From a virus, in IMG/VR virus record IMGVR_UViG_3300020165_001964: a DNA stretch of 64,000 nt; one strand, 5' to 3'. The translations under genes and the position numbers were made by a program. Below the pieces are notes generated by a model. That model did no database searches. It was not told the DNA's origin and saw only the letters and a list, made by a program, of their open reading frames with translations. Positions 2,095 through 55,428 of the stretch are shown here, piece by piece. Numbering within the stretch: the stretch's first letter is position 1; every line of letters starts with the position of its first letter.

Positions 2095-3252
2095 ATGGCT
2101 CAAGAACCAATTTGGCCAGGTAGTGGTTCAGATGCAAGTGGTTCAACACCATTTGGGTTTTACGATGAAGATTCAGACTTTCAAGGAGATGCTCCCAAAT
2201 TTGCAACATGGTGTGCAAAGAGGATGGGTTATCCTATAACTGCAGTTGAACTTCAAGATACTCAATTTTATGCATGTTTCGAAGAAAGTATCACAGAATA
2301 CTCAGCTCAAGTAAATCAATTCAATATAAAAGATAATCTATTGAGTTTGAAAGGACAATCTACAGGTTCAAATCTTACACATAAAAGAATATCACACACT
2401 ATGAGTGAACAAATTTTCATATCAGAAACATATGGAAGTGAAGCAGGTGTAGGTGGACAAGTAGAACGAAAGAAATCTAAAATCACTATAAATAGTGGTT
2501 CTCAAGATTATGATTTAAACAATTTAATTGCAGACCCAAGTGCTAGTGGTGGAATAGAAGTTACGAGAGTATTCTATGAAAGTAATCCAGCAATCACAAG
2601 ATACTTTGACCCATATGCTGGAACTGGACAACAAACAAACAATATGTTAGATGCATTTGGATTCGGTGGTTCATCACCAGCAATTACATTTATGTTACAA
2701 CCAATATATGCAGATTTACTTAGGGTTCAAGCAATCGAATTTAATGACCAGATTAGAAAATCTGCGTATTCATTTAACATTGTTAACAATAAGTTGAGAG
2801 TATTCCCAAGAATTACGGGTACTGCTACTGCATCAATGTGGGTTGAGTGGAAAGAAATATCAGATAGGGATAATGCGTTAAGAACTCGTTATAGTGGTTC
2901 TGCAGATACAATATCAGATATCAGTAATGCTCCATATGATAATATGAAATACCAAAGTATCAATGATGTGGGTAAACAATGGATTCGTAAGTATGGATTG
3001 GCTTTATCAAAAGAGTTATTAGGTATGGTTCGTAGTAAATATGGTACTATTCCTATTCCTAACTCTGAAGTTTCATTAGATGGTGAAACATTAAGAGCAG
3101 AAGCAACTGCTGAGAAAGACCAGTTAATAGAACAATTAAGAGAAATGTTAGACCAAACAAGTAATAGGGCACTTATGGAAGCAGATAGGGAATCTGCGGA
3201 TAACTTACAAGAGAAGTTAAAGAAAGTTCCTTATCCAATGTATATAGGATAA
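2095..3252 (+). CDS. Neck/head-completion protein (gp13-like)
   Basis: Follows capsid gene. RMGYPITAVEL N-terminal and WIRKY...LGMVRSKY...LDGETL C-terminal motifs resemble gp13. Confidence 0.7.
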   Translation: MAQEPIWPGSGSDASGSTPFGFYDEDSDFQGDAPKFATWCAKRMGYPITAVELQDTQFYACFEESITEYSAQVNQFNIKDNLLSLKGQSTGSNLTHKRISHTMSEQIFISETYGSEAGVGGQVERKKSKITINSGSQDYDLNNLIADPSASGGIEVTRVFYESNPAITRYFDPYAGTGQQTNNMLDAFGFGGSSPAITFMLQPIYADLLRVQAIEFNDQIRKSAYSFNIVNNKLRVFPRITGTATASMWVEWKEISDRDNALRTRYSGSADTISDISNAPYDNMKYQSINDVGKQWIRKYGLALSKELLGMVRSKYGTIPIPNSEVSLDGETLRAEATAEKDQLIEQLREMLDQTSNRALMEADRESADNLQEKLKKVPYPMYIG

Positions 3253-3256
3253 AATT

Positions 3257-3742
3257 ATGGCAAGTAGATATTGGCCAACAAGAGATACTGAATTAGCCAA
3301 ACGATTCAATGATGAACTCGTTGGTAATCTTGATAAAGGTGATTGTGGAATCATTGGACAAGAGATTATACTTTACAGAGTATCCACATATGAAACCGAA
3401 ACTAATATGTATGGTGAATCAGGTGGTGGTAAAGTGTATGAGGCAGGAGTTAAGTTATCTTGTATAATAGAGGCAGAAGATTTTGATTTTGAAGTAAATG
3501 AATTTGGACCAGATGCTCGACAAGAAGCACAATTCCATTTCCAACGAGATATGTTAATTGATATAAACTTCAGACCAGATATTGGTGATGTTGTAAGTTG
3601 GAACTTAGGTTATTTTGAAATCACAAAAACAAATGAAAATCAATTAGTTGCTGGGGATTACAATAAAAATTGGACAATATCTTGTACAGGTACACTAACA
3701 AGAATCAATTCACTAAATATTGAACAAACAAGGGCGTTTTAA
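3257..3742 (+). CDS. Neck/head-closure protein (gp14-like)
   Basis: Synteny, size, NMYGES and PDIGDVV motifs. Confidence 0.55.
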   Translation: MASRYWPTRDTELAKRFNDELVGNLDKGDCGIIGQEIILYRVSTYETETNMYGESGGGKVYEAGVKLSCIIEAEDFDFEVNEFGPDARQEAQFHFQRDMLIDINFRPDIGDVVSWNLGYFEITKTNENQLVAGDYNKNWTISCTGTLTRINSLNIEQTRAF

Positions 3743-5430
3743 TGAGAAAAAAACCGATATCGAGAAAGGCTCGTAGGGATTTAAACTCGATTGCGATTAG
3801 AGATGATTATAATCGTGGTAAACAATTACGAAGAGATGATGATAAAGTAAAAAATATCAGTAATCAGATTATTGATATGGATAGTGCAATCATGTACTAT
3901 TTTAATGAAGTTATTAAACCTACAGTCACAGAAAATAAAGAAACAATCAAAGTACCCGTTATGTATGCATCACCTGAAAGATGGGTTAGTATACAAAAAA
4001 TGGGTTTCATGAGAGATAAACGCCAACAATTAATTACACCTGCTATTGTGTTTAGAAGAACAGGTATGGAAAAGAATGAAAACATCCCAACTAATAAAAT
4101 GGATGCTAATAATCCAAGAAATTTTCAAACATTTTCACAAAAGTATTCTTCAAGTAATCGCTACGACCAATTCAGTAGAACGATTGGTACTACACCAAAT
4201 AAAGAATTATACAATGTAGTTATGCCAGATTATGTAACTCTAAATTACGAGTTTACAATATGGACATCATACATAGAACAGATGAACAAAATCATTGAAA
4301 GGGTAAATTACACAGATAATTCTTATTGGGGTGAACCTGGTAAGATGAGGTTTAGAAGTAAGATAGATTCATTTAGTGATGCAAGTGAAATGGATACTCA
4401 AGAAAGAATTATAAAAACTAACTTTAGTGTTCAATTATATGGGTATATTATACCTGAAGAATTTAACAACATGATAACCACTAAGAAACAATTAACACCT
4501 AAAAAGGTTATCATCAACATGGATGTTGAAAAAACTGCTGATGATTTTATAGAATCAGATAAGAGTGGTGGAGTATCAGTTCAATCACCAGTAAAGGATA
4601 TATTCAGTATATCTACAAGTTTTCCACTTGTGTTTAACGCAGGAACAGGTGTTTCATTAAGTAATGATGGTTCACCATTTGATGGTTCACAACAAGTAAA
4701 TCAAACGATATCTATAGGACAGGCAGTTGCACCAACAGATGATGTAACATTTAATCAAATTACATCCAACACATTAGTGTTTGGTAATCCAACCACATAT
4801 TCCTATACAGGTATTAGTGGTAGTGTAAATATCACAGGTAGTTTAACAACGAGTGGTAATGTTACGGTCAATGGTGATATGAATGTTCTTGGAACACTAA
4901 CTGCACAAGAATTTAAAACAACATTTGTTTCATCAAGTATATTATTTGAAAGTGGTAGTACTAAATTAGGAGATACTACAAACGATACTCATCAGAGGAC
5001 AGGTAGTTTAAATGTTACTGGTAGTTGGAGTTTGAACGGATATAGTATAAATGAGATATCCAATGATAGTGGATTAACAGACCAAAGTGCAACAACACTT
5101 GTAACAGAGGCAGCAATGTCTGGTTTTACAGCAGGTTCTGTTACTGATAAACAAAACTATCTAAGAAAGAATTTTTATAAATCTTCAAATGGAATCCTAA
5201 GTACAGCAACTGCAAGTTTCACCGCAGTAACTGCATCTGCACCAAGTGGATTTACTGATACTAATGAGAATGATTTCTTATTCTTTATTAATGGTCAATA
5301 CATGGAACACGATGCTCTTACAATAGAACAAAGTGGTAGTGTATTTTTACTTCAAGTTGATACCAGTGGTATTGGATATGAATTAGAATCTGATGATGAA
5401 ATATTAGCAGTTGGTAAATTTAATTCATAG
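3742..5430 (+). CDS. Tail terminator/sheath stabiliser (gp15-like N-terminal half) fused to a Ser/Thr/Gly-rich fibre-like C-terminal domain
   Basis: KVPVMYASPERW and PDYVTLNYEFTIWT...QMNKIIE resemble gp15. C-terminal half is paralogous to the next gene. Confidence 0.6.
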   Translation: MRKKPISRKARRDLNSIAIRDDYNRGKQLRRDDDKVKNISNQIIDMDSAIMYYFNEVIKPTVTENKETIKVPVMYASPERWVSIQKMGFMRDKRQQLITPAIVFRRTGMEKNENIPTNKMDANNPRNFQTFSQKYSSSNRYDQFSRTIGTTPNKELYNVVMPDYVTLNYEFTIWTSYIEQMNKIIERVNYTDNSYWGEPGKMRFRSKIDSFSDASEMDTQERIIKTNFSVQLYGYIIPEEFNNMITTKKQLTPKKVIINMDVEKTADDFIESDKSGGVSVQSPVKDIFSISTSFPLVFNAGTGVSLSNDGSPFDGSQQVNQTISIGQAVAPTDDVTFNQITSNTLVFGNPTTYSYTGISGSVNITGSLTTSGNVTVNGDMNVLGTLTAQEFKTTFVSSSILFESGSTKLGDTTNDTHQRTGSLNVTGSWSLNGYSINEISNDSGLTDQSATTLVTEAAMSGFTAGSVTDKQNYLRKNFYKSSNGILSTATASFTAVTASAPSGFTDTNENDFLFFINGQYMEHDALTIEQSGSVFLLQVDTSGIGYELESDDEILAVGKFNS

Positions 5431-5439
5431 GAATAGTTA

Positions 5440-6291
5440 ATGCCAATTTTAAAATTTAAAAACCCAATTGTAATATCAGGTTCTGATGGTTTTGTATCTT
5501 CTAATAATGGTGAGTTAGATGCAACAAATAGGACAGTAACAGAATTTTCTATAGGACAATCAGTAGCAACTGGTTCAAGTGTAGAGTTTAATGGGGTAAC
5601 ACAACCAGAAAATCAAACTCTTGTTTTACCTAACCCAAATGATGATTCACAAAATATGGTATTAGGGTATGGATTTATAAGTGGTTCAAATCTTACATTC
5701 ACAGTCGATACACAAGAAATAAGTGAAAACTATACTCACGAAGATAATGCAACAATAAATGGTAGTATAAGTGCTGGTACGATATTAACAGAATTAAGTT
5801 CATCTGAAGTTGTTTTTAGTTCTGGTAGTACAAAGTTTGGTGATACATTAGATGATATACACGAGGTAACAGGTAGTGTAACCATTAGTGGTTCATTCGG
5901 TGTAAATGGTAGTGATATCATCGCTTTTAGTAATAGTAGTGATGTAAGTTCGGCAAGAACAAATGTTCTTGTTACAGAAAATGTAGCATTCCAAGTACTC
6001 GGTGGAGAAGCAGAAACAGCAAATTTATACTTAAGAAAACAATTCGCAAAAGTTGGTACGATAAGTAATTCTACTGCTAGTTTTTCGGCAGTAACAGCAT
6101 CTGCAGGAGATTTAACTACAACATCAATAACTGATTTTCACTTTTATTTAAATGGGATGATTTTAGAACAAGATGCATTAGAAGTACAACAAAGTGGTAG
6201 TACATTTAAAGTACATATGGATGCTAATTCACTTGGGTATAATTTATCACCCGATGATGAAATAGTTGCTTGGGGAAAATTTAATTCATAA
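5440..6291 (+). CDS. Virion structural protein, paralogue of the C-terminal half of 3742..5430
   Basis: Shares SIGQxVA, SGSTKxGDT, YLRKxF, TASFxAVTASA and DDEIxAxGKFNS. Confidence 0.65.
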   Translation: MPILKFKNPIVISGSDGFVSSNNGELDATNRTVTEFSIGQSVATGSSVEFNGVTQPENQTLVLPNPNDDSQNMVLGYGFISGSNLTFTVDTQEISENYTHEDNATINGSISAGTILTELSSSEVVFSSGSTKFGDTLDDIHEVTGSVTISGSFGVNGSDIIAFSNSSDVSSARTNVLVTENVAFQVLGGEAETANLYLRKQFAKVGTISNSTASFSAVTASAGDLTTTSITDFHFYLNGMILEQDALEVQQSGSTFKVHMDANSLGYNLSPDDEIVAWGKFNS

Positions 6292-6330
6292 ATACCACAT
6301 TGGTTTTACCATTTGTTGATATTTATTAGT

Positions 6331-6606
6331 ATGAGAAAACGACATTGGAAAAATAGGAAAAACCGAAAGTGTCCATCGTGTAGTAAGATGTTAACCTATA
6401 CGAGAAAAGATGCCTTTGATAGGGCAGTGGGTAATAATAGTGTGTGTAAATCATGTGCTCAATCAGATAGAAAATTAACATTGGATACGATTGAAAAAAT
6501 GAAACAACCTAAAACTATTCAACATAAGAAAAAGATTTCGAAATCAATTACAGATTGGTGGGTAGACAGAAAACAAGAAGTAGAAGAATATGGCATTAAT
6601 AGATAG
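6331..6606 (+). CDS. Small basic Zn-finger/NUMOD3-like protein (homing endonuclease-like remnant)
   Basis: CPSC...CKSC followed by KMKQPKTIQHKKKISKS. ATG at 6331 lies right after a late-promoter motif. No nuclease domain seen. Confidence 0.5.
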   Translation: MRKRHWKNRKNRKCPSCSKMLTYTRKDAFDRAVGNNSVCKSCAQSDRKLTLDTIEKMKQPKTIQHKKKISKSITDWWVDRKQEVEEYGINR

Positions 6607-40287: not shown

Positions 40288-40317
40288 ATTCACAAGTAAA
40301 CAAACAAGGAGATGATT

Positions 40318-43074
40318 ATGAATAATTATCGTAATCTTATCGCATCAGTATTTATGATGGCAGGATTGTATGCACAATCTATTGTCGGAGTTGTTACTGA
40401 TGTTGACTCACAACCACTTGAGGGAGCTAATATTGTAGTTGTAGGAACAGATGTAGGTGGAGTATCAGATAATTCTGGTGCTTTCAAAATTGATGTTCTA
40501 TCAGGTACATACGATGTAACTGCTTCTTTCATAGGTTACTCTTCAATAACGAAATCAGTAGTTGTTGAGGATATAGTTTCAAGTGTTAATTTCATATTAG
40601 AAATTGATTTCTTGGGATTATCAGATGTAGAGGTGTTAGCATCTCGTGCATCTGAAACAACACCTGTTGCTTACACTAATGTTAGTAAAGCTGAAATGGA
40701 TGTTCGTCTTGGTTCACAAGACATTCCAATGATTCTTAACACAACACCAAGTGTATATGCAACCCAACAAGGTGGTGGTGCGGGTGATGCTCGTATCAAC
40801 ATTCGAGGTTTTAATCAACGAAATGTTGCAGTAATGATAAATGGTGTACCACAGAATGACATGGAGAATGGTTGGGTGTACTGGTCTAATTGGGACGGAG
40901 TTGGTGATGCTACATCATCTATTCAGGTTCAAAGAGGACTAAGTGCAGTTAATCTTGCGACTCCATCCATTGGTGGAACAATGAACATTATTACAGACCC
41001 AACCGCGATGGAAAAAGGTGGAAAGTTCAAACAAGAAGCTGGAGATGGGGGTTTTCTAAAGACTACCGCTACCTACCATACTGGTCTCATCGGAGATAAG
41101 TTAGCTTTAAGTGGAACAATTGTTCGTAAAACTGGTGATGGAATTATCGATGGGACATGGACAGATGCATGGGCCTATTATTTCGGTGGTTCTTACGCCG
41201 TAAGTGAAGACCAAAGAGTTGAGTTGTACGCAATAGGTGCACCACAACGACACGGTCAGAACTTATACAAACAAAACATAGCAACATACTCACAAGAGCT
41301 TGCAGGTGATGTTGATGGATATGATACTGATGCATTTGCAGATGGTAACAAATTCGAAACTGAAGCAGGTAGGTTCTACAATCAAAATTGGGCACCAGTA
41401 GATGAATCATACACTGGTCAACAATATTGGTATATGTATGGAGCAAAAACAACCGATAGATTCAATAAAGGTTTTATAAATGAGAGAGAAAACTTCTTTC
41501 ATAAACCATTAGTGAATCTAAATCACTTCTTAACAATAAATGACAAGACTCGTTTGAGTTCAGTTCTTTATTGGAGTGGTGGTTCTGGTGGTGGTACTGG
41601 TACATATGGTAGTGTTTCAAGAACACCTGCAGTTGAGGGAGAAAGATGGTATGCATCTTCGCCTTGGATGTGGGATTGGAACGCAGAGATAGAACAAAAC
41701 AGAACAAACTTCGATGCTGATTATTCTGAAACAGATGCTCGTTCAACAGGTATTCTTCGTAACTCAATTAATCGTCAAGATACATATGGTTTGATTTCAA
41801 AATTAAACTACATTGTTAATGATGAACTTGAATTACAAGTTGGATTAGACTGGAGAACAGCAGGTATCGAACACGCTCGTGAGGTTCGTGATTTATTAGG
41901 TGGAGACTACTATGTAGATTTCGCTGATGATAATGCACCTGATGGGAAAGTTGTTGGTTTAGGTGATATCATTGCCTATCATAATGAAACCACAGTCGAT
42001 TGGATTGGTGGATTTTTACAAGGTAATTATAATACTGAAAAATTAAACCTATATGGTATGGGTGGATTATCAAGTATTACATACTCTTATGAAGACCACT
42101 TTGCTGTTAATGTAGATGAAGATGGGAACACCATTGATAATCTTGTTAAAGCAGATGCAATCACGACCTATCAGTTAAAAGGTGGTGGATTATATAACAT
42201 TAACGATAATCTTGGAGTATTCCTAAACGCAGGTTTAGTTGAAAAAGCACCAATATTAGACAATGTTATCTACTACGATGGTACAGTCTCAACAGACCCA
42301 GCAAATGAAAAATTCATTGCTAGTGAGTTTGGAGTGAACTATGGAACTGAAAGGTTCGGAGTTAAAGTTAGTGCTTATAACACCGATTGGAAAGATAGAA
42401 ACCTTACTAAATCTGTTTCAACAGGTCAAGGTTCATCAGGTGATACTGATATTATCTTCTTAACAGGTGTTGACCAAAACCATAAAGGTATTGAGATTGA
42501 AACTAAAGTAAAACCACACGATATGGTTGAACTTGATTTCATCGCATCTTATGGTAGTTGGAAGTTCGTTGGTGATGCCGATGGTACTTACCAAGAACAA
42601 GAGTTTAATGATGATAACCAAGTAATTGGTGTTCAGACTACAGATTACTCTTATGCACTTGATGGATTATGGGTTGGTGATATGCCACAAACATCTTATA
42701 TTTTAGGTGTTACTCTTAAACCAATTAAAGGTTTGAGATTACAGGCATTGTACAAAACATATGACAGAAACTTTGCTGATTGGTCACCTGATTCTCGTGA
42801 GATTGAGGGTGATGCCGACAGAACACAAGTTTGGGAAGCCCCAGGTTATTCTAAACTTGATTTACATGCATCATACAATCTTCCAAGTGTTGCTGGTTTA
42901 GATTTGACTCTTACAGGTCATATCTTCAACGCACTTGATGATGTATTTGTACAAGATGCAGTTGACAATAGTCAATACAATGGGTATGGTGATAAACTTC
43001 ACTTACCACATAACGCAGAGGTATTCTTAGGAACACCACGATATGCAAACATTGGATTGACTGTTAATTTCTAA
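40318..43074 (+). CDS. TonB-dependent outer-membrane receptor with N-terminal carboxypeptidase-regulatory-like domain
   Basis: Signal peptide, PLEGANIVV...SFIGY domain, plug motif INIRGF...VMINGVP...IQVQRG, beta-barrel ending GLTVNF. SD favours ATG at 40318. Confidence 0.9.
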   Translation: MNNYRNLIASVFMMAGLYAQSIVGVVTDVDSQPLEGANIVVVGTDVGGVSDNSGAFKIDVLSGTYDVTASFIGYSSITKSVVVEDIVSSVNFILEIDFLGLSDVEVLASRASETTPVAYTNVSKAEMDVRLGSQDIPMILNTTPSVYATQQGGGAGDARINIRGFNQRNVAVMINGVPQNDMENGWVYWSNWDGVGDATSSIQVQRGLSAVNLATPSIGGTMNIITDPTAMEKGGKFKQEAGDGGFLKTTATYHTGLIGDKLALSGTIVRKTGDGIIDGTWTDAWAYYFGGSYAVSEDQRVELYAIGAPQRHGQNLYKQNIATYSQELAGDVDGYDTDAFADGNKFETEAGRFYNQNWAPVDESYTGQQYWYMYGAKTTDRFNKGFINERENFFHKPLVNLNHFLTINDKTRLSSVLYWSGGSGGGTGTYGSVSRTPAVEGERWYASSPWMWDWNAEIEQNRTNFDADYSETDARSTGILRNSINRQDTYGLISKLNYIVNDELELQVGLDWRTAGIEHAREVRDLLGGDYYVDFADDNAPDGKVVGLGDIIAYHNETTVDWIGGFLQGNYNTEKLNLYGMGGLSSITYSYEDHFAVNVDEDGNTIDNLVKADAITTYQLKGGGLYNINDNLGVFLNAGLVEKAPILDNVIYYDGTVSTDPANEKFIASEFGVNYGTERFGVKVSAYNTDWKDRNLTKSVSTGQGSSGDTDIIFLTGVDQNHKGIEIETKVKPHDMVELDFIASYGSWKFVGDADGTYQEQEFNDDNQVIGVQTTDYSYALDGLWVGDMPQTSYILGVTLKPIKGLRLQALYKTYDRNFADWSPDSREIEGDADRTQVWEAPGYSKLDLHASYNLPSVAGLDLTLTGHIFNALDDVFVQDAVDNSQYNGYGDKLHLPHNAEVFLGTPRYANIGLTVNF

Positions 43075-48060: not shown

Positions 48061-48984
48061 ATGGAAGAAATTAAAAACACATTATGGGTAGAAAAATATC
48101 GGCCGTCGAAACTTGACAGCTACATAGGTAACCAACACCTAAGAAGTAAAGTCAAGGTCTACATCGAGAGTGGAGATTTACCACACCTTTTACTATACGG
48201 ACGTGCTGGTACAGGTAAAACCACTCTCGCTAAATTACTTGTTAATAATATAGAGTGTGATTATCTTTACATCAACGCATCTGATGAGAATAGTGTGGAT
48301 GTGGTTCGTGATAAAGTAAAGAACTTTGCATCAACACTTGGATTCAAAGAGATGAAAGTTATTATCTTGGATGAGTGTGATTACATTACACCAAATGCTC
48401 AGGCAGCACTAAGAAATCTAATGGAAACATTTAGTAAGAATTGTAGGTTTATCTTAACTTGTAATTATGTTGAGAGAATCATTGACCCAATTCAAAGTAG
48501 ATGTCAATCATTTCAAATCATTCCACCAGATAGAAAAGAAGTTGCAGTTCATTTAAATACCATCCTAACAAAAGAGGGAGTTAAATCAGATATTGAAGAT
48601 ATTGTAACCATAGTTAATGGTGGTTTTCCTGATTTAAGAAGAGTGATTAATGCCGCACAAAGACAAGTAGTGAATGGTGAGTTGGTTATTGATGAGGGTA
48701 TGAGTATTCAGAATGATTACAAGAACCAAGTATTAGAAATCTTGAAAACACAAGATAAGAAGAATTGTTTTAAAAATATAAGACAACTATTAGCAGATTC
48801 AAAGGTAACAGATTTCTCTGATTTATTCAGATTGTTATTTGATACAGTCGATGATTGGGGTAGAGGTCATGTGGCTGAGTGTATTTTAGTTTTGGCTCAG
48901 TATCAACAAAGTGATGCAGTAGTGGTAGATAAAGAAATTAACATTATGGCAATGTTTATTGAAATTATTGGCAAGGTAAAGTGA
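48061..48984 (+). CDS. Clamp loader large subunit (gp44/RFC)
   Basis: LWVEKYRP, GRAGTGKTT, INASDE, ILDECD and IQSRC. Confidence 0.95.
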   Translation: MEEIKNTLWVEKYRPSKLDSYIGNQHLRSKVKVYIESGDLPHLLLYGRAGTGKTTLAKLLVNNIECDYLYINASDENSVDVVRDKVKNFASTLGFKEMKVIILDECDYITPNAQAALRNLMETFSKNCRFILTCNYVERIIDPIQSRCQSFQIIPPDRKEVAVHLNTILTKEGVKSDIEDIVTIVNGGFPDLRRVINAAQRQVVNGELVIDEGMSIQNDYKNQVLEILKTQDKKNCFKNIRQLLADSKVTDFSDLFRLLFDTVDDWGRGHVAECILVLAQYQQSDAVVVDKEINIMAMFIEIIGKVK

Positions 48985-50096
48985 GAAAAGGATTTTGTGT
49001 ATCACCATTTCGATATGCCGAAATAAGAGATAACGGAGATGTTTGGCAGTGTTGTACGAGTTGGATAGAAAAACCAGCTGGTAATATCTTAACAGATAAA
49101 TGGGATGATATTTGGAATAGTAATTACGCAAAAAGATTAAGAAGAAGTATGCACAAAGGTGATTTCTCTATGTGTGATGAAAACTTATGTCCTTACATTC
49201 AAAAGTGGAATAAAGGTGAAGAGGATTATTCAGCATACTTTCCAATATATGATGAATCAACATTTGAAAAGTTATGGGATGCAAAAGAAATAAATCCTAA
49301 TGGAAAGAAAAAGTATCAAAATATAATAGAAAACAAAACTATTGATTTACCTTATGGGCCTGAAAGTGTTACATTTGCTCACGATAGAAGTTGTAATTTA
49401 GCTTGTCCATCTTGTAGAAAAGATTTCTTTAAAACAGAGGGTAAAGATAGAGAACAAACTTATAAGATACAAGAGTTAATTATGGGAGAACCTATATGTG
49501 ATACTCACGAGGTTTATATAACTAACTCAGGTGATGCATTTGGAGCAGATGTATTTAGAGATTTATTGAAAATGATTAACACTAAAGATTTTCCAAATTT
49601 AGTTAATTTACATTTACATACAAATGCTAATAGTTGGTCAAGAACACATTGGAATAAACTTAAAAACTTACACGATATTCCAAGATTAACTTGTCATATT
49701 AGTATTGATGCATGTACAAAAGAAACTTACGAAATAGTAAGAAAAGGTGGTAAGTGGGAAACACTTCAGAAAAACTTAAAGTTTATATTTGAAGATATTC
49801 CTAATTTAAAATTTATTAGAACATCATTTGTTTGTCAAGATTTAAATTATAAAGAGATGAGTGGTTTTGTAAAATTAATTGATGATTTAAGTTATGGTTC
49901 AGATGCCATAGTTGAAGTAGAGTTTGGACAATTTACTGATTGGGGTGTGAGTTCAAAGGAAATAGTTGAACAAAGACAGATATTTAAGAGAACACATCCT
50001 AATTATAATTTGTTTTTAGAAGAATATAAAAAAATGTTAAAGTTAGATAAGAATGTACTTATTACAGATAATTTAGATATAGAGGAGTTAACATGA
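48981..50096 (+). CDS. Radical SAM protein with N-terminal SPASM/twitch-like domain
   Basis: CVSPF...GDVWQCC...GNI...IWNS, then CNLACPSC. Confidence 0.8.
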   Translation: MRKGFCVSPFRYAEIRDNGDVWQCCTSWIEKPAGNILTDKWDDIWNSNYAKRLRRSMHKGDFSMCDENLCPYIQKWNKGEEDYSAYFPIYDESTFEKLWDAKEINPNGKKKYQNIIENKTIDLPYGPESVTFAHDRSCNLACPSCRKDFFKTEGKDREQTYKIQELIMGEPICDTHEVYITNSGDAFGADVFRDLLKMINTKDFPNLVNLHLHTNANSWSRTHWNKLKNLHDIPRLTCHISIDACTKETYEIVRKGGKWETLQKNLKFIFEDIPNLKFIRTSFVCQDLNYKEMSGFVKLIDDLSYGSDAIVEVEFGQFTDWGVSSKEIVEQRQIFKRTHPNYNLFLEEYKKMLKLDKNVLITDNLDIEELT

Positions 50097-50329
50097 GTAA
50101 AGATAGAAAATATCAAGAACCACCACAACCTGTGGATATTAGTGATACAGAAACAATAGTTTGTGAAGAGTGTGGAAACGCATCTTTCATACAATCATTC
50201 TTTCTGAAAAGAATATCACCATTAGTATCACCAACAGGTAAAGAAGCAATCGTACCAATACAAGTATTTGCATGTGGTAATTGTGGTTCAATACCAAAGA
50301 ACATGATGAATCAAATTGCAGAGCAATAG
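50093..50329 (+). CDS. Small Zn-ribbon protein
   Basis: CEECG...CGNCG. Confidence 0.6.
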   Translation: MSKDRKYQEPPQPVDISDTETIVCEECGNASFIQSFFLKRISPLVSPTGKEAIVPIQVFACGNCGSIPKNMMNQIAEQ

Positions 50330-50769
50330 TGTATTACAAAATAGATTTAACTGATTATGAACCACGAGAAACTCATAATTATTTAGAGTTTGATGAGTTT
50401 AAATTTAATCCTTATCAATTAGAAACTATTGAAAAGGAATTAAATAACTTTCAAGATTCATTTGGAAGACCTTGGAAAGAGTGGGATATGTCTGATTTGA
50501 AAGATAGATTGCAAAACAATTTCACATTTTATTTACTTGAGGGTGGTTGGTGTTTTATAGATTGGGATAAAAAATATCCTTATTTATGTAATCGTTATGT
50601 GTTTTCAGAACACAGAGGCAAAGGGTTAGGAAAAGATTTGGTTTGGTTAAGGTGTAATGAAATCAAAAAACGAGGATTAAATACTGCTTCAATTAAATTA
50701 GATTGGTGGAACACACCAGCATTATCAGTCAAAAAAGATTATATTTTCACCGAAATTGATGGTATTTGA
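50329..50769 (+). CDS. GNAT-family acetyltransferase
   Basis: Acetyl-CoA motif HRGKGLGK; GTG start overlaps the previous stop. Confidence 0.65.
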   Translation: MYYKIDLTDYEPRETHNYLEFDEFKFNPYQLETIEKELNNFQDSFGRPWKEWDMSDLKDRLQNNFTFYLLEGGWCFIDWDKKYPYLCNRYVFSEHRGKGLGKDLVWLRCNEIKKRGLNTASIKLDWWNTPALSVKKDYIFTEIDGI

Positions 50770-50810: not shown

Positions 50811-53075
50811 ATGTCAACACAGATAACAAGAACAACAGAATTTATTAATCATATTACAGGTAGTGCAGGTAATTGGCCTTCATTATCAAATGCTGGAATT
50901 CTTGGTGGTATAGACTACCTTATAGAAAGTGGTTCCAACGAAGTAAAATTTATAGAAATGAATACCAATATTGGAATTGTTGGTAGTGCAGCAATACAGA
51001 CAGGTAGTTACTTCGATGTAATATCAGATTATGTAAATGATAAAGGATACACGACTACTTATGTTTATGGAGTTAATCACAATGGTAAAAAAAATCCATC
51101 AACACTTCAACAACCATTAATTAGTGCTAGTTTTGCACGACATGATATAACGACTAATTTTGAATATGGTGATAGTCTAACAAGAACATACTTTTTACAA
51201 AGAGGAGACGAAGACCACTTAGATAAGTTTCATTTATGGATGCAAACGCCTTGGTATAGTGATGATAATTTAAAAAGTATAGTTAGTGGTTCATTTGATA
51301 AAAATACATTTAGAACATTTTTGGGTAATTCACCATTTAGTTCTTCTTTGATACCATCATTTGATAAGGATAATTATACACCAAATAATAATTATCCAGA
51401 TTTTGTAGTTAAAACTGCAACTCAAGATTCGAGTGTTCAAACTAATAAAATTGGTTTTTACACATACAATTCAACAAGTTCAAGTTATCAAAATGGAGTT
51501 GATAGTGGTTCTTTGATAGAAGAATATATTGTTCATAGTGGAAGTTACAGAGATGGACAATCACATTTGGGTGTGGGTAAAATAGAGTTTATGATGACAC
51601 CAGAAAAGGTTATTGTGTTTGGTGATAGAGATTCTGGTAGAAATGTTAAACTAAAACCTACAGCAACAGATAGTTGGGATTATATAGGGCAAAAAGCAAA
51701 AACATCTGCGAGTGGTAGTTTAATTAAAATGTATGATGGTTCAACAAAACAGGTTCAAGATGTTGAAGTTGGGGATGTTGTTTTAAGTTATCAACCATAT
51801 GGAATGCCAGATGAATCAAAAGATTATTTATCTTACACCACAACAGATTTAAGTGGTTCTACAACACAAGGTTCTATTGTTGTAGATGTAATGAACACCG
51901 AAAATTATGGATATTATTTAATCAATGGTAGTATTAAAGCACCTTATAATTTACAACAGGCTAGTAGTGATATTAGATATTTTGTAAAACAAGGAGATAC
52001 TTGGGAATGGATAACAACAGATGCTATTAGAACTGGAGATTATCTTTTAGACACAAGTGGTAATGAAACAGAAGTTACATCAAAGACAGAACATGATGGT
52101 GATACACTTTGGTATGCACTTGATGTAGAGGATATTGATACTTACTTCCAATCAAATATATTGGTTCACAATATTCCACCAAAGTGTTTTGTAGCAGGAA
52201 CACCAATCACTATGGGTGATGGAACTACAAAAGTTATTGAAAGAATTGAAATCGGTGATGAAGTTATGAATTATAATTTCAAAGATGAAGAAGTTCAGAC
52301 AGGTAAAGTTACCACGATTGATACACCAACACACGCAGATATTATAGAGATTAGTTTTGGTGATAAGAAGACAAAGAATACATTTGACCATCCATATTGG
52401 GTAGTTGGAAAAGGTTGGAGTTCATATAAACCAGAGTGGACTAAAAAACGATATGATATAGAATCAAATCAATTAGAAATTGGTGATAAGTGTTTAGAAC
52501 TTCGTGATGGTAAATTAGTGGAAAGAGAAATTACTAATATTGTTGAAGATATAAATCCAGTCCAAACTTATTCATTAGAAATAACAACAAACCATAACTA
52601 TTTTGCAAATGATGTATTAGTTCATAACAAATTTTGTTTAATGGAAGACCAAGTTATTAATATGGGAGATGGTGTTTATAAAAGAATTGATGAGATAGAA
52701 TTAGGTGAAAGTATTTTACAATACGATGAAGAAACTGAAGAGTTTAAAGAGGGTAAAGTAAATATGATAAGAAAGAAACTACATGATAATTGTTATGGAA
52801 TCAAAGTTGAAAGTGGACAAACAATTAAAGCAACTGATAACCATCCATTTTTATTGAGAGATAAAGGTTGGTCTACAATTGCTGAGAACAATCCAATGTT
52901 TTTACAAGATGGTGGTGGTATTATAAAAGTTGGTGATTATGTTAGAGATATAGATGGATGGGTAGAAATTGTAGAAATCAATAAAATTGAGGGAGAATAT
53001 ATAACATATAACTTGTTAGAACAAGATTATGGAACTATTATTGCTCATGATATTGTAACTCACAATTCACCTTAA
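50811..53075 (+). CDS. Circularly permuted ATP-grasp-like domain plus three tandem Hint (intein-like) domains
   Basis: Hint1 T298-N454, Hint2 C459-N606 (TFDH), Hint3 C609-N752 (TDNH), each ending HN. N-domain has GIDYL...FIEMNT before DK...FVVK...IEEYI. Confidence 0.8.
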   Translation: MSTQITRTTEFINHITGSAGNWPSLSNAGILGGIDYLIESGSNEVKFIEMNTNIGIVGSAAIQTGSYFDVISDYVNDKGYTTTYVYGVNHNGKKNPSTLQQPLISASFARHDITTNFEYGDSLTRTYFLQRGDEDHLDKFHLWMQTPWYSDDNLKSIVSGSFDKNTFRTFLGNSPFSSSLIPSFDKDNYTPNNNYPDFVVKTATQDSSVQTNKIGFYTYNSTSSSYQNGVDSGSLIEEYIVHSGSYRDGQSHLGVGKIEFMMTPEKVIVFGDRDSGRNVKLKPTATDSWDYIGQKAKTSASGSLIKMYDGSTKQVQDVEVGDVVLSYQPYGMPDESKDYLSYTTTDLSGSTTQGSIVVDVMNTENYGYYLINGSIKAPYNLQQASSDIRYFVKQGDTWEWITTDAIRTGDYLLDTSGNETEVTSKTEHDGDTLWYALDVEDIDTYFQSNILVHNIPPKCFVAGTPITMGDGTTKVIERIEIGDEVMNYNFKDEEVQTGKVTTIDTPTHADIIEISFGDKKTKNTFDHPYWVVGKGWSSYKPEWTKKRYDIESNQLEIGDKCLELRDGKLVEREITNIVEDINPVQTYSLEITTNHNYFANDVLVHNKFCLMEDQVINMGDGVYKRIDEIELGESILQYDEETEEFKEGKVNMIRKKLHDNCYGIKVESGQTIKATDNHPFLLRDKGWSTIAENNPMFLQDGGGIIKVGDYVRDIDGWVEIVEINKIEGEYITYNLLEQDYGTIIAHDIVTHNSP

Positions 53076-53097: not shown

Positions 53098-53724
53098 ATG
53101 GGAAAATATAAACATAATAATAATTTCAAGTATTCAATTCAAATACCAAATTTCTTATCACATGAAAAGTGTGATGAAATAATTAAACAAGTTACAGATA
53201 CAGAAGAACAAGTTGTAGGTTGTGTTGGTGATGAAAAGGGTAGTGTAATCATACCAGAAATCAGACAAACAAAAGAATGGTATTTAACAGACCAACCATT
53301 AAATGATATGAGACCTGATAAAACTGCCAATGATTGGGGTTGGATACAGAAGAAAATGTACACGATTATTCAAATGGTAAATAAAGATATTTTCAAATTT
53401 GATATCAGAGGTTATCATGATGAGTTAAAACTAATAGAATACCAAGATGGTGGTTTCTATGGTTGGCATACAGATTTTAATGCAGGTTATTGTTCAGTAA
53501 GAAAGTTAGTAGGAATAATTCAATTAACAGACCCGAGTGAATATGAGGGTGGAGATGTTCAATTCGGTATCCAAGATAAAAATACAAAAGAATGGTACAC
53601 TATGGAGAAGAAAAAAGGCTCACTAACAATCTTTCCAACATTCTTATCACACAATGTAACACCAGTCACTAAAGGTAAACGACATGTAATTCAAGAATTA
53701 TTTGTAGGAGACCATTTTAGGTGA
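53098..53724 (+). CDS. 2OG-Fe(II) oxygenase (P4H/PKHD-like)
   Basis: WHTD, YEGG and HNVTPVTKGKR. Confidence 0.9.
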   Translation: MGKYKHNNNFKYSIQIPNFLSHEKCDEIIKQVTDTEEQVVGCVGDEKGSVIIPEIRQTKEWYLTDQPLNDMRPDKTANDWGWIQKKMYTIIQMVNKDIFKFDIRGYHDELKLIEYQDGGFYGWHTDFNAGYCSVRKLVGIIQLTDPSEYEGGDVQFGIQDKNTKEWYTMEKKKGSLTIFPTFLSHNVTPVTKGKRHVIQELFVGDHFR

Positions 53725-54254
53725 TTGCAAATAAAAACTTTGAGTGGTTTTTAGTTAGAGATAACTTTTTATCATCTCAAGAGTGTGATGATGAAATTAA
53801 GTTTATAGATAGTAATGTAAAAAAAGATAATTTTGTTTCGGGTGATATGCATGATTGTAAAAATGTTGATATAGAAAATGAAAAATTATTAGATAGACTA
53901 TGGAAAGTAGTAAAACTATCTAACACATTGGTATATAAATTTGATATATCAGGTATTCAAGGTTCTTGTGGGAAGTTATATTCAGTAGATACATTTACAG
54001 CAGATGATAATTATCATACAGACTTTGCAGCAGGAGATGGAAGTGTTGTTAATAGTTGTACTAAATTATCTTGTTTAATATTTTTAAATGATGATTTTGA
54101 GGATGGTGGATTACAAATTTGGAACGATAAAATAGATGCTAAAAAAGGTAGGTTAGTTATATTTCCATCATTTGCAGCACATAAAGTTTTACAATTTAGT
54201 GAAAAGGATAGATACACATTAATAACTTTCATAGGGGGCAATACTTTTAAATGA
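53721..54254 (+). CDS. 2OG-Fe(II) oxygenase
   Basis: YHTD, FLNDDFEDGGL and HKV...R. Confidence 0.85.
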   Translation: MIANKNFEWFLVRDNFLSSQECDDEIKFIDSNVKKDNFVSGDMHDCKNVDIENEKLLDRLWKVVKLSNTLVYKFDISGIQGSCGKLYSVDTFTADDNYHTDFAAGDGSVVNSCTKLSCLIFLNDDFEDGGLQIWNDKIDAKKGRLVIFPSFAAHKVLQFSEKDRYTLITFIGGNTFK

Positions 54255-54862
54255 AATATAAAAATATAAACATGGAAGAGTTGAAGATAAACCAAGATTT
54301 TAGATGGTTTATTACAAGACCTAATTTCTTTTCAAAGGATGAATGTGAATATATGATAAAACATATAGATAAGACCTCAACAAGAAAGAAAGGACATTAT
54401 ACTGAAAACCGAGAAGATAGTTCATCATTGACTTGGGATACAACAGAGGATAGTAATGTTTGTATGTTAAACATTAGTAGAACAGAAGAGCAAAAGTATC
54501 TTGATAAGTTTTGGAGTGCAATACAAATTGCAAACATAACAACATTCAAATATAATTTAAGTGGAATATTTGAAAATAGAGTACAGGCACACAGATATGA
54601 TGTAGGTGATTGGTATAATCCACATGCGGATTTTCACTCAATACAAAAGTTTAGTTCAGTAAAATTAACTTGTATTGTATTTTTAAACGACCAACAAGAT
54701 TATGAGGGTGGTGAGTTCAGAATGTTTGACGGAACAATCATAGAACCAGAAGTGGGGAAATTAATTATACATCCCGCATTTGCAGGACACGAGGTTAAAC
54801 CAGTTACAAAGGGTGAGAGATATTCTTGTGTTTGTTGGGCAGTAGGAGATACTTTCGTATGA
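54251..54862 (+). CDS. 2OG-Fe(II) oxygenase
   Basis: PHAD, YEGGEF and HEVKPVTKGERYS. Confidence 0.9.
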   Translation: MKYKNINMEELKINQDFRWFITRPNFFSKDECEYMIKHIDKTSTRKKGHYTENREDSSSLTWDTTEDSNVCMLNISRTEEQKYLDKFWSAIQIANITTFKYNLSGIFENRVQAHRYDVGDWYNPHADFHSIQKFSSVKLTCIVFLNDQQDYEGGEFRMFDGTIIEPEVGKLIIHPAFAGHEVKPVTKGERYSCVCWAVGDTFV

Positions 54863-55428
54863 TACAAAATGATAATTTTAAATTTGTAGTACATAAAGAG
54901 AATTTTTTATCTAATTCACAATGTGATAACTTGATAAAATATTTGGATGAAGTAAATCCAAATGATTCAGAACTTGCAGGAAAGTATGATGAAAATATTT
55001 TAAATAAAAAGGTTCGTAACAATAAAGAAGTTATATTCAAAGATGATAAATTAAGAAATAAACTAAAAATGATTTTTGAATTATCAAACTTATCAATTTG
55101 GAATTTTGATATACAGAAAATGGAAGATGTAAAACTTTTAAAGTATGATGTTGGTGGTAAATATGAATGGCATACTGATTGTGGTTCCAAGAAAACTTCT
55201 AAAAGAAAACTAACTGCCATTGTTCAGTTATCAGATGAAACAACATACGAGGGTGGAGATTTAGAATTTGGAATCACCGAAGATTCAGGTGGGAAAAATT
55301 ATACTGCACCAAGAGAGAGAGGGAGTATCACAATATTTCCTGCGTTCTTATCACATAGAGTAACACCAATCACTAAAGGAACTCGTTACTCATTAATAAC
55401 TTGGATGTTGGGAAATGCATTTAAATAA
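54859..55428 (+). CDS. 2OG-Fe(II) oxygenase
   Basis: WHTD, RKLT, YEGGDL and HRVTPITKGTRYSL. Confidence 0.9.
   Translation: MIQNDNFKFVVHKENFLSNSQCDNLIKYLDEVNPNDSELAGKYDENILNKKVRNNKEVIFKDDKLRNKLKMIFELSNLSIWNFDIQKMEDVKLLKYDVGGKYEWHTDCGSKKTSKRKLTAIVQLSDETTYEGGDLEFGITEDSGGKNYTAPRERGSITIFPAFLSHRVTPITKGTRYSLITWMLGNAFK

Follow-up and report, generated by a model that had tools for sequence, protein, structure and literature searches.

The 64,000-nucleotide (nt) stretch of viral DNA analyzed here, IMG/VR record IMGVR_UViG_3300020165_001964 (the window, meaning the whole stretch), carries on its plus strand a gene whose product combines an ATP-grasp-like domain with three Hint domains, in the order ATP-grasp, Hint1, IPPK, Hint2, KF, Hint3, SP (Table 1). 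All of its constituent parts belong to known kinds. The family itself is uncharacterised and, as judged from structural models, fuses a rearranged, putatively ATP-dependent amide ligase to intein-like Hint domains that are predicted to cut themselves and that stand only 2-4 residues apart in the protein of the window.

An initial annotation, made from the letters and a list of open reading frames (ORFs), had described the product as a self-processing polyprotein with a permuted ATP-grasp ligase and three tandem Hint domains. Cutting the translation at the coordinates of Table 1 reproduced the ORF and all of the Hint motifs, and the N-terminal domain holds the motifs GIDYL, FIEMNT, PDFVVK and IEEYI in the order given then. 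Hint1 starts with the residues TSASGS and ends with ILVHN. Hint2 has a cysteine as its first residue (Cys1, C459), the motif NTFDHP, the ending VLVHN (H605-N606) and Lys607 as the residue after the domain (+1), while the corresponding features of Hint3 are C609, ATDNHP, VTHN (H751-N752) and Ser753. Several Hint-type Pfam families matched across all three regions, those above their cut-offs for Hint2 and Hint3 being Intein_splicing, Hint, Hom_end_hint and PT-HINT; translation and Pfam thus agree with the catalytic make-up assigned to the three domains. No further Hint domain was found elsewhere in the window by tblastn. The two grounds on which selfish inteins had been discounted are also upheld: with 144-157 amino acids (aa) each, the Hints lack an endonuclease, and the array interrupts no host protein, homologues with Hint1 alone ending exactly at the IPPK-type tail.

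Table 1. Features of the ligase-Hint gene and of its surroundings in the window (2OG, 2-oxoglutarate; P4H, prolyl 4-hydroxylase)
Feature	Position	Strand	Basis
Coding sequence, 754 aa, ATG start	50811..53075	+	ORF list and translation
Circularly permuted ATP-grasp-like ligase domain (predicted), residues 1-297	50811..51701	+	AlphaFold2 model and structure searches
Hint1, degenerate, residues 298-454	51702..52172	+	Hint fold of model
IPPK tail/linker, residues 455-458	52173..52184	+	Alignment of homologues
Hint2, BIL-like, residues 459-606	52185..52628	+	Motifs, PDB sequence matches
KF linker, residues 607-608	52629..52634	+	Junctions in homologues
Hint3, full class-1-type splicing set, residues 609-752	52635..53066	+	Motifs, conservation
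Ser-Pro C-flank and stop codon	53067..53075	+	Translation
Promoter-like motif TGATATTTAT, 35 nt ahead of the start codon	50767..50776	+	Enrichment
Radical SAM/SPASM protein, upstream	48981..50096	+	PF13186, E 1e-8
78-aa protein with two CxxC pairs (Zn-ribbon-like)	50093..50329	+	Orthologues 51-66% identical at the same position in L004 and L001
GNAT-like protein (start probably a few codons inside the ORF)	50281..50769	+	PF00583, E 2.4e-5
Four tandem 2OG-Fe(II) oxygenases (P4H/PiuC-like)	53098..55428	+	PF13640, E 4.3e-9 to 9.7e-16, above cut-off
213-aa sulfotransferase-like protein with GCSRSGTT loop	55415..56056	+	Weak PF09037, E 0.0057

An AlphaFold2 model of the ligase domain, built from an alignment of 32 sequences, reached a predicted local distance difference test score (pLDDT) of 89.6 and a predicted template modelling score (pTM) of 0.87. 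In a Foldseek search of the PDB it matched YgiC/YjfC first, followed by eukaryotic glutathione synthetase (GS), glutathionylspermidine synthetase (GspS) and trypanothione synthetase (TryS) (E 1.8e-7 to 7e-4). The top ten of a VIA search, which is independent of Foldseek, consisted only of permuted ATP-grasps (Z 9.0-11.9, 223-260 residues aligned over model residues 1-298) and included the CP_ATPgrasp-type structure 3n6x and the E-64 ligase Cp1B, whereas the alignments of non-permuted ATP-grasps (LysX/ArgX, RimK, Ddl, PurK) started only at about residue 76-81, with Z 4.7-6.4. A search of the ESM Atlas returned the family's own viral clusters and then, as the first named families, GSH_synthase (template modelling (TM) score 0.65) and GSP_synth (TM 0.61). 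Because permuted enzymes match the whole domain and canonical ones only a part of it, the initial assignment to the permuted ATP-grasps is supported at the level of the fold, and by its model the domain, minimal in size at 297 aa, is a highly divergent member of this branch of structures. Among the viral structures of BFVD nothing matched the ligase domain at E ≤ 0.001.

The ESM Atlas also contains a cluster of proteins of about 303 aa, half of them viral, which have the ligase-domain fold (TM 0.75 and 0.74) but carry no Hint; the domain thus has a free-standing relative, out of the reach of sequence searches.

Across 32-35 homologues five residues of the domain (D35, E49, N51, P196 and E237) do not vary, and D197, K201 and S243-G244-S245 are nearly constant, with a conservation of at least 90%. 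D35 and E49-x-N51 fall in the N-terminal segment that the permuted enzymes alone cover, a segment that in eukaryotic GS and GspS holds the Mg ligands, the putative equivalents of these residues. The whole group of structural matches joins the carboxylate of a peptide or acid to an amine (the RefSeq name for YgiC is peptide-spermidine ligase), and a ligase function is proposed for the viral domain by analogy with these relatives.

In a model of residues 1-458 (pLDDT 89.0, pTM 0.87), Hint1 packs against the ATP-grasp and is followed by the conserved tail. It aligned with the BIL domain BIL2 (6y75) at Z 18.8 and a root mean square deviation of 2.0 Å over 139 residues, with the C. thermocellum BIL domain (2lwy) at Z 17.3, and with mini-inteins and Hedgehog at Z 15-16.6; more than 40 inteins scored above Z 12.5. 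Residue 1 of the inteins superposes on model residue 297/298 and their terminal Asn on residue 454. According to the model, Hint1 is a genuine Hint fold, but a degenerate one. Its first residue is T in the query and T, S, F, I or V among homologues, block B reads LINGS instead of TxxH (N372 being conserved), and cysteine is absent from all of residues 1-458; Hint1 therefore cannot start the usual acyl-shift chemistry. The mechanism of class 3 inteins was considered for it and ruled out on the same absence of cysteines. At the C-terminal end V452, H453 and N454 are at least 90% conserved, with a strongly conserved block just ahead of them.

Behind Hint1 comes a conserved tail of the form [I/L]-P-x(0-3)-K (IPPK, IPPGK, IPPRK, LPPK, IPGK and similar), with I or L at +1 and P at +2 in all but a few family members. 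Hint1-only homologues have this tail as their C-terminus, and in longer forms it stands directly before the next Cys1, so that N-side cleavage by the first Cys1 Hint would regenerate the C-terminus of the short form. In two deep homologues without a tail the ending VHS replaces VHN, with Ser in place of the terminal Asn; this joint loss of tail and Asn appears as a small but pointed co-variation.

Phage NCTB (LT598654.1, 258 kb; L009) encodes two tail-region proteins (1-723 and 2548-6462) with complete C-terminal Hints, which are the closest cultured-phage relatives of Hint1. They consist of a Gly run, Cys1, TxxH and HN, followed by a tail of 6-7 residues, and look, from their sequences, like an uncharacterised self-cleaving module of phage tail proteins. 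The C-terminal Hint of the 1304-aa NCTB protein shares 35% identity with Hint1, which also matches positions 342-469 of the 478-position profile of PHROG 38766 ('virion structural protein'). The NCTB Hints resemble Hint1 in ending with HN and a short tail; they differ in that Cys1 and TxxH, both absent from Hint1, are kept, so that N-side cleavage is possible, and in that the N-flank is a tail- or fibre-like protein and not a ligase. Hint1 itself gives the impression of a phage C-terminal autoprocessing module that was recruited and half disabled.

The other Hints of the family retain the residues for their chemistry, which are invariant or at least 90% conserved across 17-60 unique sequences. 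The best solved relatives found by a PDB sequence search are the BIL domains 6tmm/6y75 (E 4.5e-12) and 2lwy (1e-10). Among 24 unique sequences of Hint2 at least 90% have Cys1; conservation also reaches 90% or more in the TxxH core of block B and in the terminal VHN, most of whose positions are invariant, and the +1 residue is K at every tabulated Hint2 junction. With Cys1, TxxH, HN, no +1 nucleophile and a non-conserved position in a variable protein, Hint2 corresponds to an A-type-like BIL domain. All 17 unique Hint3 sequences agree in Cys1, in the Thr and His of block B, in the terminal HN and in the +1 Ser, which is the residue set of class 1 inteins; insertion into a host protein restored by extein ligation was not found, the C-extein of Hint3 being Ser-Pro only, and homologues without Hint3 stop at the tail or continue into other Hints. 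A fourth type, the terminal Hint HT, occurs in homologues and has an invariant Cys1 and TDNH, ends with VLVSDES and lacks HN; it is a Hedgehog-like Hint for which N-side cleavage only is predicted.

The N-terminal two thirds of Hint2 (residues 459-564, 52185-52500) match the Pfam family AXH, the Ataxin-1/HBP1 module, far above cut-off (E 1.6e-23), and the same stretch matches crystal chains of the ataxin-1 AXH domain (E 1e-8). The matches point either to homology between the AXH module and Hints of the BIL type or to a Pfam AXH model that overlaps Hints.

A search with the N-terminal domain yielded 238 clusters at 90% identity, nearly all of them marine metagenomic and many from Tara samples; a search over all length classes yielded 39 clusters at 50% identity, in which every full-length cluster had Hint1 and the short matches were fragments. 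Architectures were counted in 131 full-length homologues (N, ligase domain; H1 to H4 and HT, Hint types). The commonest is N-H1-HT (84), followed by N-H1 (19), N-H1-H2-H3-HT (9), N-H1-H2-H3, the type of the query (8), N-H1-H2-HT (6), N-H1-H2 (2), N-H1-H2-H3-H4 (2) and N-H1-H3 (1). The number of Hints, which the initial annotation had proposed to compare among homologues, ranges from one to four per protein, and at least one Cys1 Hint is present in 112 of the 131 members. A constant core of ligase, Hint1 and tail is followed by zero to three more Hints, with the order of Hint types constant throughout.

The tree built from the N+H1 core requires at least 13 changes of architecture. Compared with the query, homologues are on average 61% identical in N, 74% in H1, 78% in H2 and 79% in H3, and one homologue from a different core clade (P0037) is 50% identical in N and 81-82% identical in H2 and H3. 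These comparisons indicate that the extra Hints are dispensable, exchangeable cassettes, gained, lost and exchanged between lineages; their high identity probably reflects both stronger constraint and horizontal cassette exchange. In the query's own 90% cluster (P0002) four members (P0164-P0166 and P0172) were called with 448-494 aa, starting at the internal Met261, Met269 or Met307; they probably have a gene that is interrupted in its 5' part, or the respective assemblies of 178-220 kb contain errors.

The junctions downstream of the tail behave differently from it. After Hint2 homologues have KF, KL, KFI, KGSF, KSSF, KGGPGSF or KICRL, and after Hint3 SP, S, SSF, SRL, SRF, SLS or SGPGDS; the protein ends in SP in eight unique sequences and in S in one. 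What is kept is the K or S at +1 and, in most cases, a hydrophobic residue ahead of the following Cys, with variable Gly/Ser/Pro spacers between them. These linkers thus look like junctions rather than products. As they vary in length and only their end residues are kept, KF, SP and KFSP, which the initial annotation had put forward as peptide products, are unlikely to be selected as such, leaving the tail as the single candidate peptide.

The window is a strand-coherent stretch of a T4-like myovirus with genes for the major head protein, tail sheath, tail tube, a gp43-type polymerase, a gp41-type helicase and a class II ribonucleotide reductase (RNR); its G+C content is about 30-38%, mostly 30-35%. 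The closest polymerase of a cultured phage is 43% identical to that of the window. Contigs with the exact query protein are up to 147 kb long, and those of near-identical cluster members reach 180-220 kb. The ligase-Hint gene lies in the replication module, between the clamp-loader genes gp44 (48025) and gp62 (56089).

All four downstream genes noted before as prolyl-hydroxylase-like encode PF13640 2OG-Fe(II) oxygenases, which among solved structures are nearest to PiuC-type hydroxylases and weakly match a prolyl 4-hydroxylase. Their synteny with the ligase-Hint gene is kept across divergent lineages: three or four oxygenases follow the homologue in L001-L006 and one in L012, GNAT orthologues stand directly upstream in L001, L004 and L012, and a large radical SAM gene lies 3' of the oxygenases, a gene or so further on, in L001-L006. 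The order Zn-ribbon, GNAT, ligase-Hint and three to four oxygenases recurs in lineages that are about 50% identical and have one or two Hints, and a deeper homologue keeps a GNAT-like gene and one oxygenase. The expectation that the linker peptides would be constrained and tied to oxygenase arrays was borne out for the Hint1 tail and for the oxygenase synteny, and not for KF and SP.

The neighbours of the deepest homologues are sulfotransferases, an AdoMet-decarboxylase-like gene and DUF6071. Sulfotransferase-like genes of three Pfam families flank the ligase-Hint gene, namely with P0131 (L010/L011), with P0141 (L013/L014) and in the window. Common descent of these genes is not supported, pairwise BLAST comparisons not being significant; what recurs is the class of function only. 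The AdoMet-decarboxylase-like gene, found near the homologue of one lineage, would fit an amine substrate of the polyamine type for a GspS-like ligase.

The decamer TGATATTTAT upstream of the gene occurs in six exact copies in the window, all on the plus strand, where 1.07 are expected by chance (2042, 6317, 16692, 18513, 28066 and 50767), with an extended form TGATATTTAT(T/A)AT that often follows a run of T. The other five copies all lie in the structural module, one of them inside a gene and four ahead of an adaptor-like gene, an 825-aa gene, the tail-tube gene and a hub/lysin-like gene. GATATTTAT stands just upstream of the homologues in L001-L006. The upstream motif that had been described as common to virion genes is accordingly real, enriched and conserved ahead of homologues. 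It is distinct from the T4 late promoter TATAAATA, which was tried as a candidate and is neither present upstream of the gene on the plus strand nor enriched in the window (15 occurrences, 11.2 expected). TGATATTTAT is a candidate phage-specific promoter, to which both promoter function and timing are attributed from its sequence context. Since copies with one mismatch also precede the non-structural genes for a thymidylate synthase and a glycosyltransferase, the description of the gene as late and virion-linked stays an inference.

These results bear on the model of the initial annotation, in which the array is a factory that releases or activates the micro-peptides IPPK, KF and KFSP, the ATP-grasp ligates them, and the oxygenases hydroxylate them as part of a late, virion-linked tagging system. 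The strongly conserved, proline-rich tail speaks for it, as do the His-Asn retained by Hint1, the loss of the tail together with the Asn, the P4H-like oxygenases as conserved neighbours and the motif shared with virion genes; but constraint is seen on the tail only, the KF and SP positions being free in length and content, and most members (N-H1-HT and N-H1) would give the tail peptide alone. The gene's place between gp44 and gp62 and the one-mismatch motif copies ahead of the thymidylate synthase and glycosyltransferase genes also tell against the model, which names no target. We consider it improbable.

The explanation we favor, to which we give somewhat less than an even chance, is that the gene encodes a self-maturing amide ligase whose tail is unmasked or activated by the extra Hints. 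Once the protein is made, Cys459 and Cys609 would form thioesters at K458|C459 and F608|C609, and Asn606 and Asn752 would cyclise. Hint3 could splice KF to SP; Hint2 could only cleave, or use an amine, for instance its invariant +1 Lys, for joining in the manner of BIL domains. The latter is proposed because of that Lys and because BIL2 converts its thioester to a Lys isopeptide without ATP (PMC8616854). With the departure of the cassettes, all architectures would converge on a mature core that ends at or just after the tail, and the use of the cassettes would be to unmask the C-terminal carboxyl of the tail or to hand it over as a thioester. Hint1, through its retained His-Asn, could release the tail by cyclisation of the Asn. 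By analogy with its structural relatives, the ligase would make an amide bond on the C-terminus of a peptide or on a small acid, possibly on its own tail, and would work in a module with the Zn-ribbon protein, the GNAT, three to four P4H-like 2OG oxygenases and, in many cases, an enzyme of the radical SAM or sulfotransferase-like kind. For Cp1B, joint action with an Fe/2OG oxygenase is on record in the biosynthesis of E-64 (PMC12568646).

Several observations weigh against the self-maturing ligase. With regard to the ligase domain, residues 1-300 of the query and of each of the 32 homologues have no Pfam match at E values up to 1, the query has no PHROG match in this domain and no PDB sequence match by profile, hhalign against E. 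coli YgiC gave a probability of 0.2%, PF03738 did not match the nearest viral record, and profiles did not place the domain in the Pfam families GSP_synth, GSH_synth_ATP or CP_ATPgrasp_1/2. Equivalence of its active site with that of the ATP-grasps is putative, its basis being the modelled fold and the conserved D, E, N and K residues. With regard to the Hints, cyclisation of an Asn is disfavoured where Ile and Pro come next, as they do after Hint1, whose role may thus be structural only. Hint1-only forms arose at least six times and hold the deepest branches (N+H1 tree, midpoint rooting), which implies that the extra cassettes are not essential, and the higher identity of the Hints may reflect recent horizontal exchange instead of selection. 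Finally, the deep homologues P0131 and P0141 are without oxygenase neighbours.

The same distribution of architectures leads to a rival explanation, in which the extra Hints are neutral or semi-selfish cassettes: intein-like passengers at the 3' end of the gene, spread by recombination during co-infection. The core would then work with or without cassettes, thioesters would simply be hydrolysed, and self-removal would be the sole requirement, so that conserved catalysis is what any self-removing insert should display. The scattered presence of cassettes across the tree of the core (at least 13 changes, cassette-free forms having arisen six times or more and filling the deepest branches), the discordant histories of cassette and core exemplified by P0037, and the length-variable Gly/Ser/Pro spacers between the Hints are all in line with this explanation. 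It has to contend with the absence of a homing endonuclease from the cassettes and from nearby genes, which leaves no known drive, and with the 0.4-1.3 kb of extra coding sequence retained by 112 of 131 members in streamlined phage genomes. The fixed order Hint2, Hint3, terminal Hint, the Asn and +1 Ser of Hint3, which are invariant even before a bare SP, where N-side cleavage alone would free the host protein, and the fact that the commonest cassette is an Asn-less Hedgehog-like Hint and not a decayed intein likewise argue against it. We regard neutral cassettes as an unlikely, if serious, possibility. Conserved catalysis, the lack of an endonuclease drive and the frequent carriage in compact genomes let us lean to useful cassettes, which are somewhat more probable than neutral ones.

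A use other than maturation of the tail would be anchoring, as in Hedgehog or BUBL proteins, with the thioester of the first Cys1 Hint moving the whole core onto a nucleophile (a virion or host lysine, a lipid or a glycan) and thereby tethering the enzyme. The commonest architecture, a core with an Asn-less Cys1/TxxH Hint, formally equals the Hedgehog arrangement, and the nearest solved sequence relatives are BIL domains that conjugate their N-flank to lysines (PMC8616854). A link to virions is suggested by the NCTB tail-region proteins, which end in Hint1-type Hints with short tails, and by the virion-structural PHROG matched by Hint1. Against this, anchoring is impossible for the Hint1-only members, which keep the same tail and neighbours, nothing like a sterol-recognition or adaptor region follows the terminal Hint, and no acceptor is named; we hold it to be improbable. 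If a specific nucleophile does capture the thioester, the family would represent a new ATP-independent conjugation device in viruses.

A further reading, which we rate as rather improbable, takes the protein as a self-contained, ribosomally made scaffold on which a modified peptide or an amine conjugate of small size is built. In it the Cys1 Hints would deliver the [I/L]-P-x-K tail with its C-terminus either free or activated as a thioester, an amine would be added to the tail by the permuted ATP-grasp or by direct aminolysis, and the oxygenases, the sulfotransferase-like enzyme, the GNAT and the radical SAM enzymes would tailor the conjugate, before cyclisation of Asn454 by the otherwise dead Hint1 frees the product. 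If true, this would be a phage route like the scaffold-peptide pathways for natural products, with Hint chemistry in place of a protease.

Known roles of Hint domains are those of selfish inteins, of Hedgehog-type lipidating modules and of BIL domains in variable bacterial proteins. The BIL domains (Tetrahymena BUBL BIL2, 6tmm/6y75; C. thermocellum, 2lwy) provide the best sequence matches of Hint2 and the best structural matches of Hint1, share with Hint2 the mini size, Cys1, TxxH and terminal HN without a +1 nucleophile, and likewise occupy variable, non-essential positions and not conserved host proteins. In the present family, in contrast, up to four Hints stand head to tail, 2-7 residues apart, whereas BUBL has ubiquitin-like domains between them; the N-flank is an enzyme, and Hint1 is without N-terminal chemistry. 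Hedgehog/Hog proteins, of which 1at0 and 6tyy align to Hint1 at Z 15.4-15.6, resemble the commonest homologue form, whose Asn-less terminal Hint is predicted to perform N-side cleavage only, via a thioester open to capture by a nucleophile; they differ in that the viral proteins have no sterol-recognition region and carry a ligase as cargo instead of a signalling domain, and the window's own protein lacks HT. With class 1 mini-inteins (Ssp DnaB, Npu DnaB, gp41-1) Hint3 shares the full residue set, and the structural alignment, measured on Hint1, gave Z 15-16.6; unlike them, Hint3 is not in a conserved host site, has a C-extein of two residues, stands in tandem with other Hints and has no endonuclease in or near it. 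The permuted ATP-grasps (eukaryotic GS, GspS/TryS, YgiC/YjfC, 3n6x, Cp1B) match the whole ligase domain at Z 9.0-11.9 and have a Mg-binding E-x-N motif near the N-terminus, of which the E-x-N of the viral domain is a putative equivalent, but they measure 368-600 aa as compared with about 297 aa here, and the viral domain is fused to Hints and matches no Pfam profile.

A DNA search of cultured phages gave no similarity to the window. A tblastn search of phages with the protein gave matches in the Hint region only (helicase inteins and NCTB) and none to the ligase domain, and the literature searched on Hint plus ATP-grasp, tandem phage BIL domains and pelagimyophages held nothing specific to this cluster. 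In the cultured-phage collection, BFVD, PHROGs and that literature no counterpart was found to the fusion of a permuted ATP-grasp with a half-disabled Hint, to C-terminal arrays of up to four near-contiguous Hints on an enzyme, or to the conserved link of the ligase-Hint gene with oxygenase arrays. The family is abundant in ocean viromes, yet absent from the cultured-phage collection, PHROGs (ligase domain) and BFVD. It offers a minimal 297-residue permuted ATP-grasp, and its natural series of one to four Hints on a constant core is suited to dissecting non-intein roles of Hint domains. The phage module of ligase, GNAT and multiple P4H-like oxygenases may also account for the 2OG oxygenase arrays of marine T4-like phages, which have long lacked an explanation.

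A 920-aa TonB-dependent receptor (CarboxypepD_reg, Plug; SusC-like) is encoded in the replication module of the window at 40312-43074, after the class II RNR. SusC-like receptors are typical of Bacteroidota, and the gene hints at a marine member of this group as the host, rather than SAR11 or a cyanobacterium.

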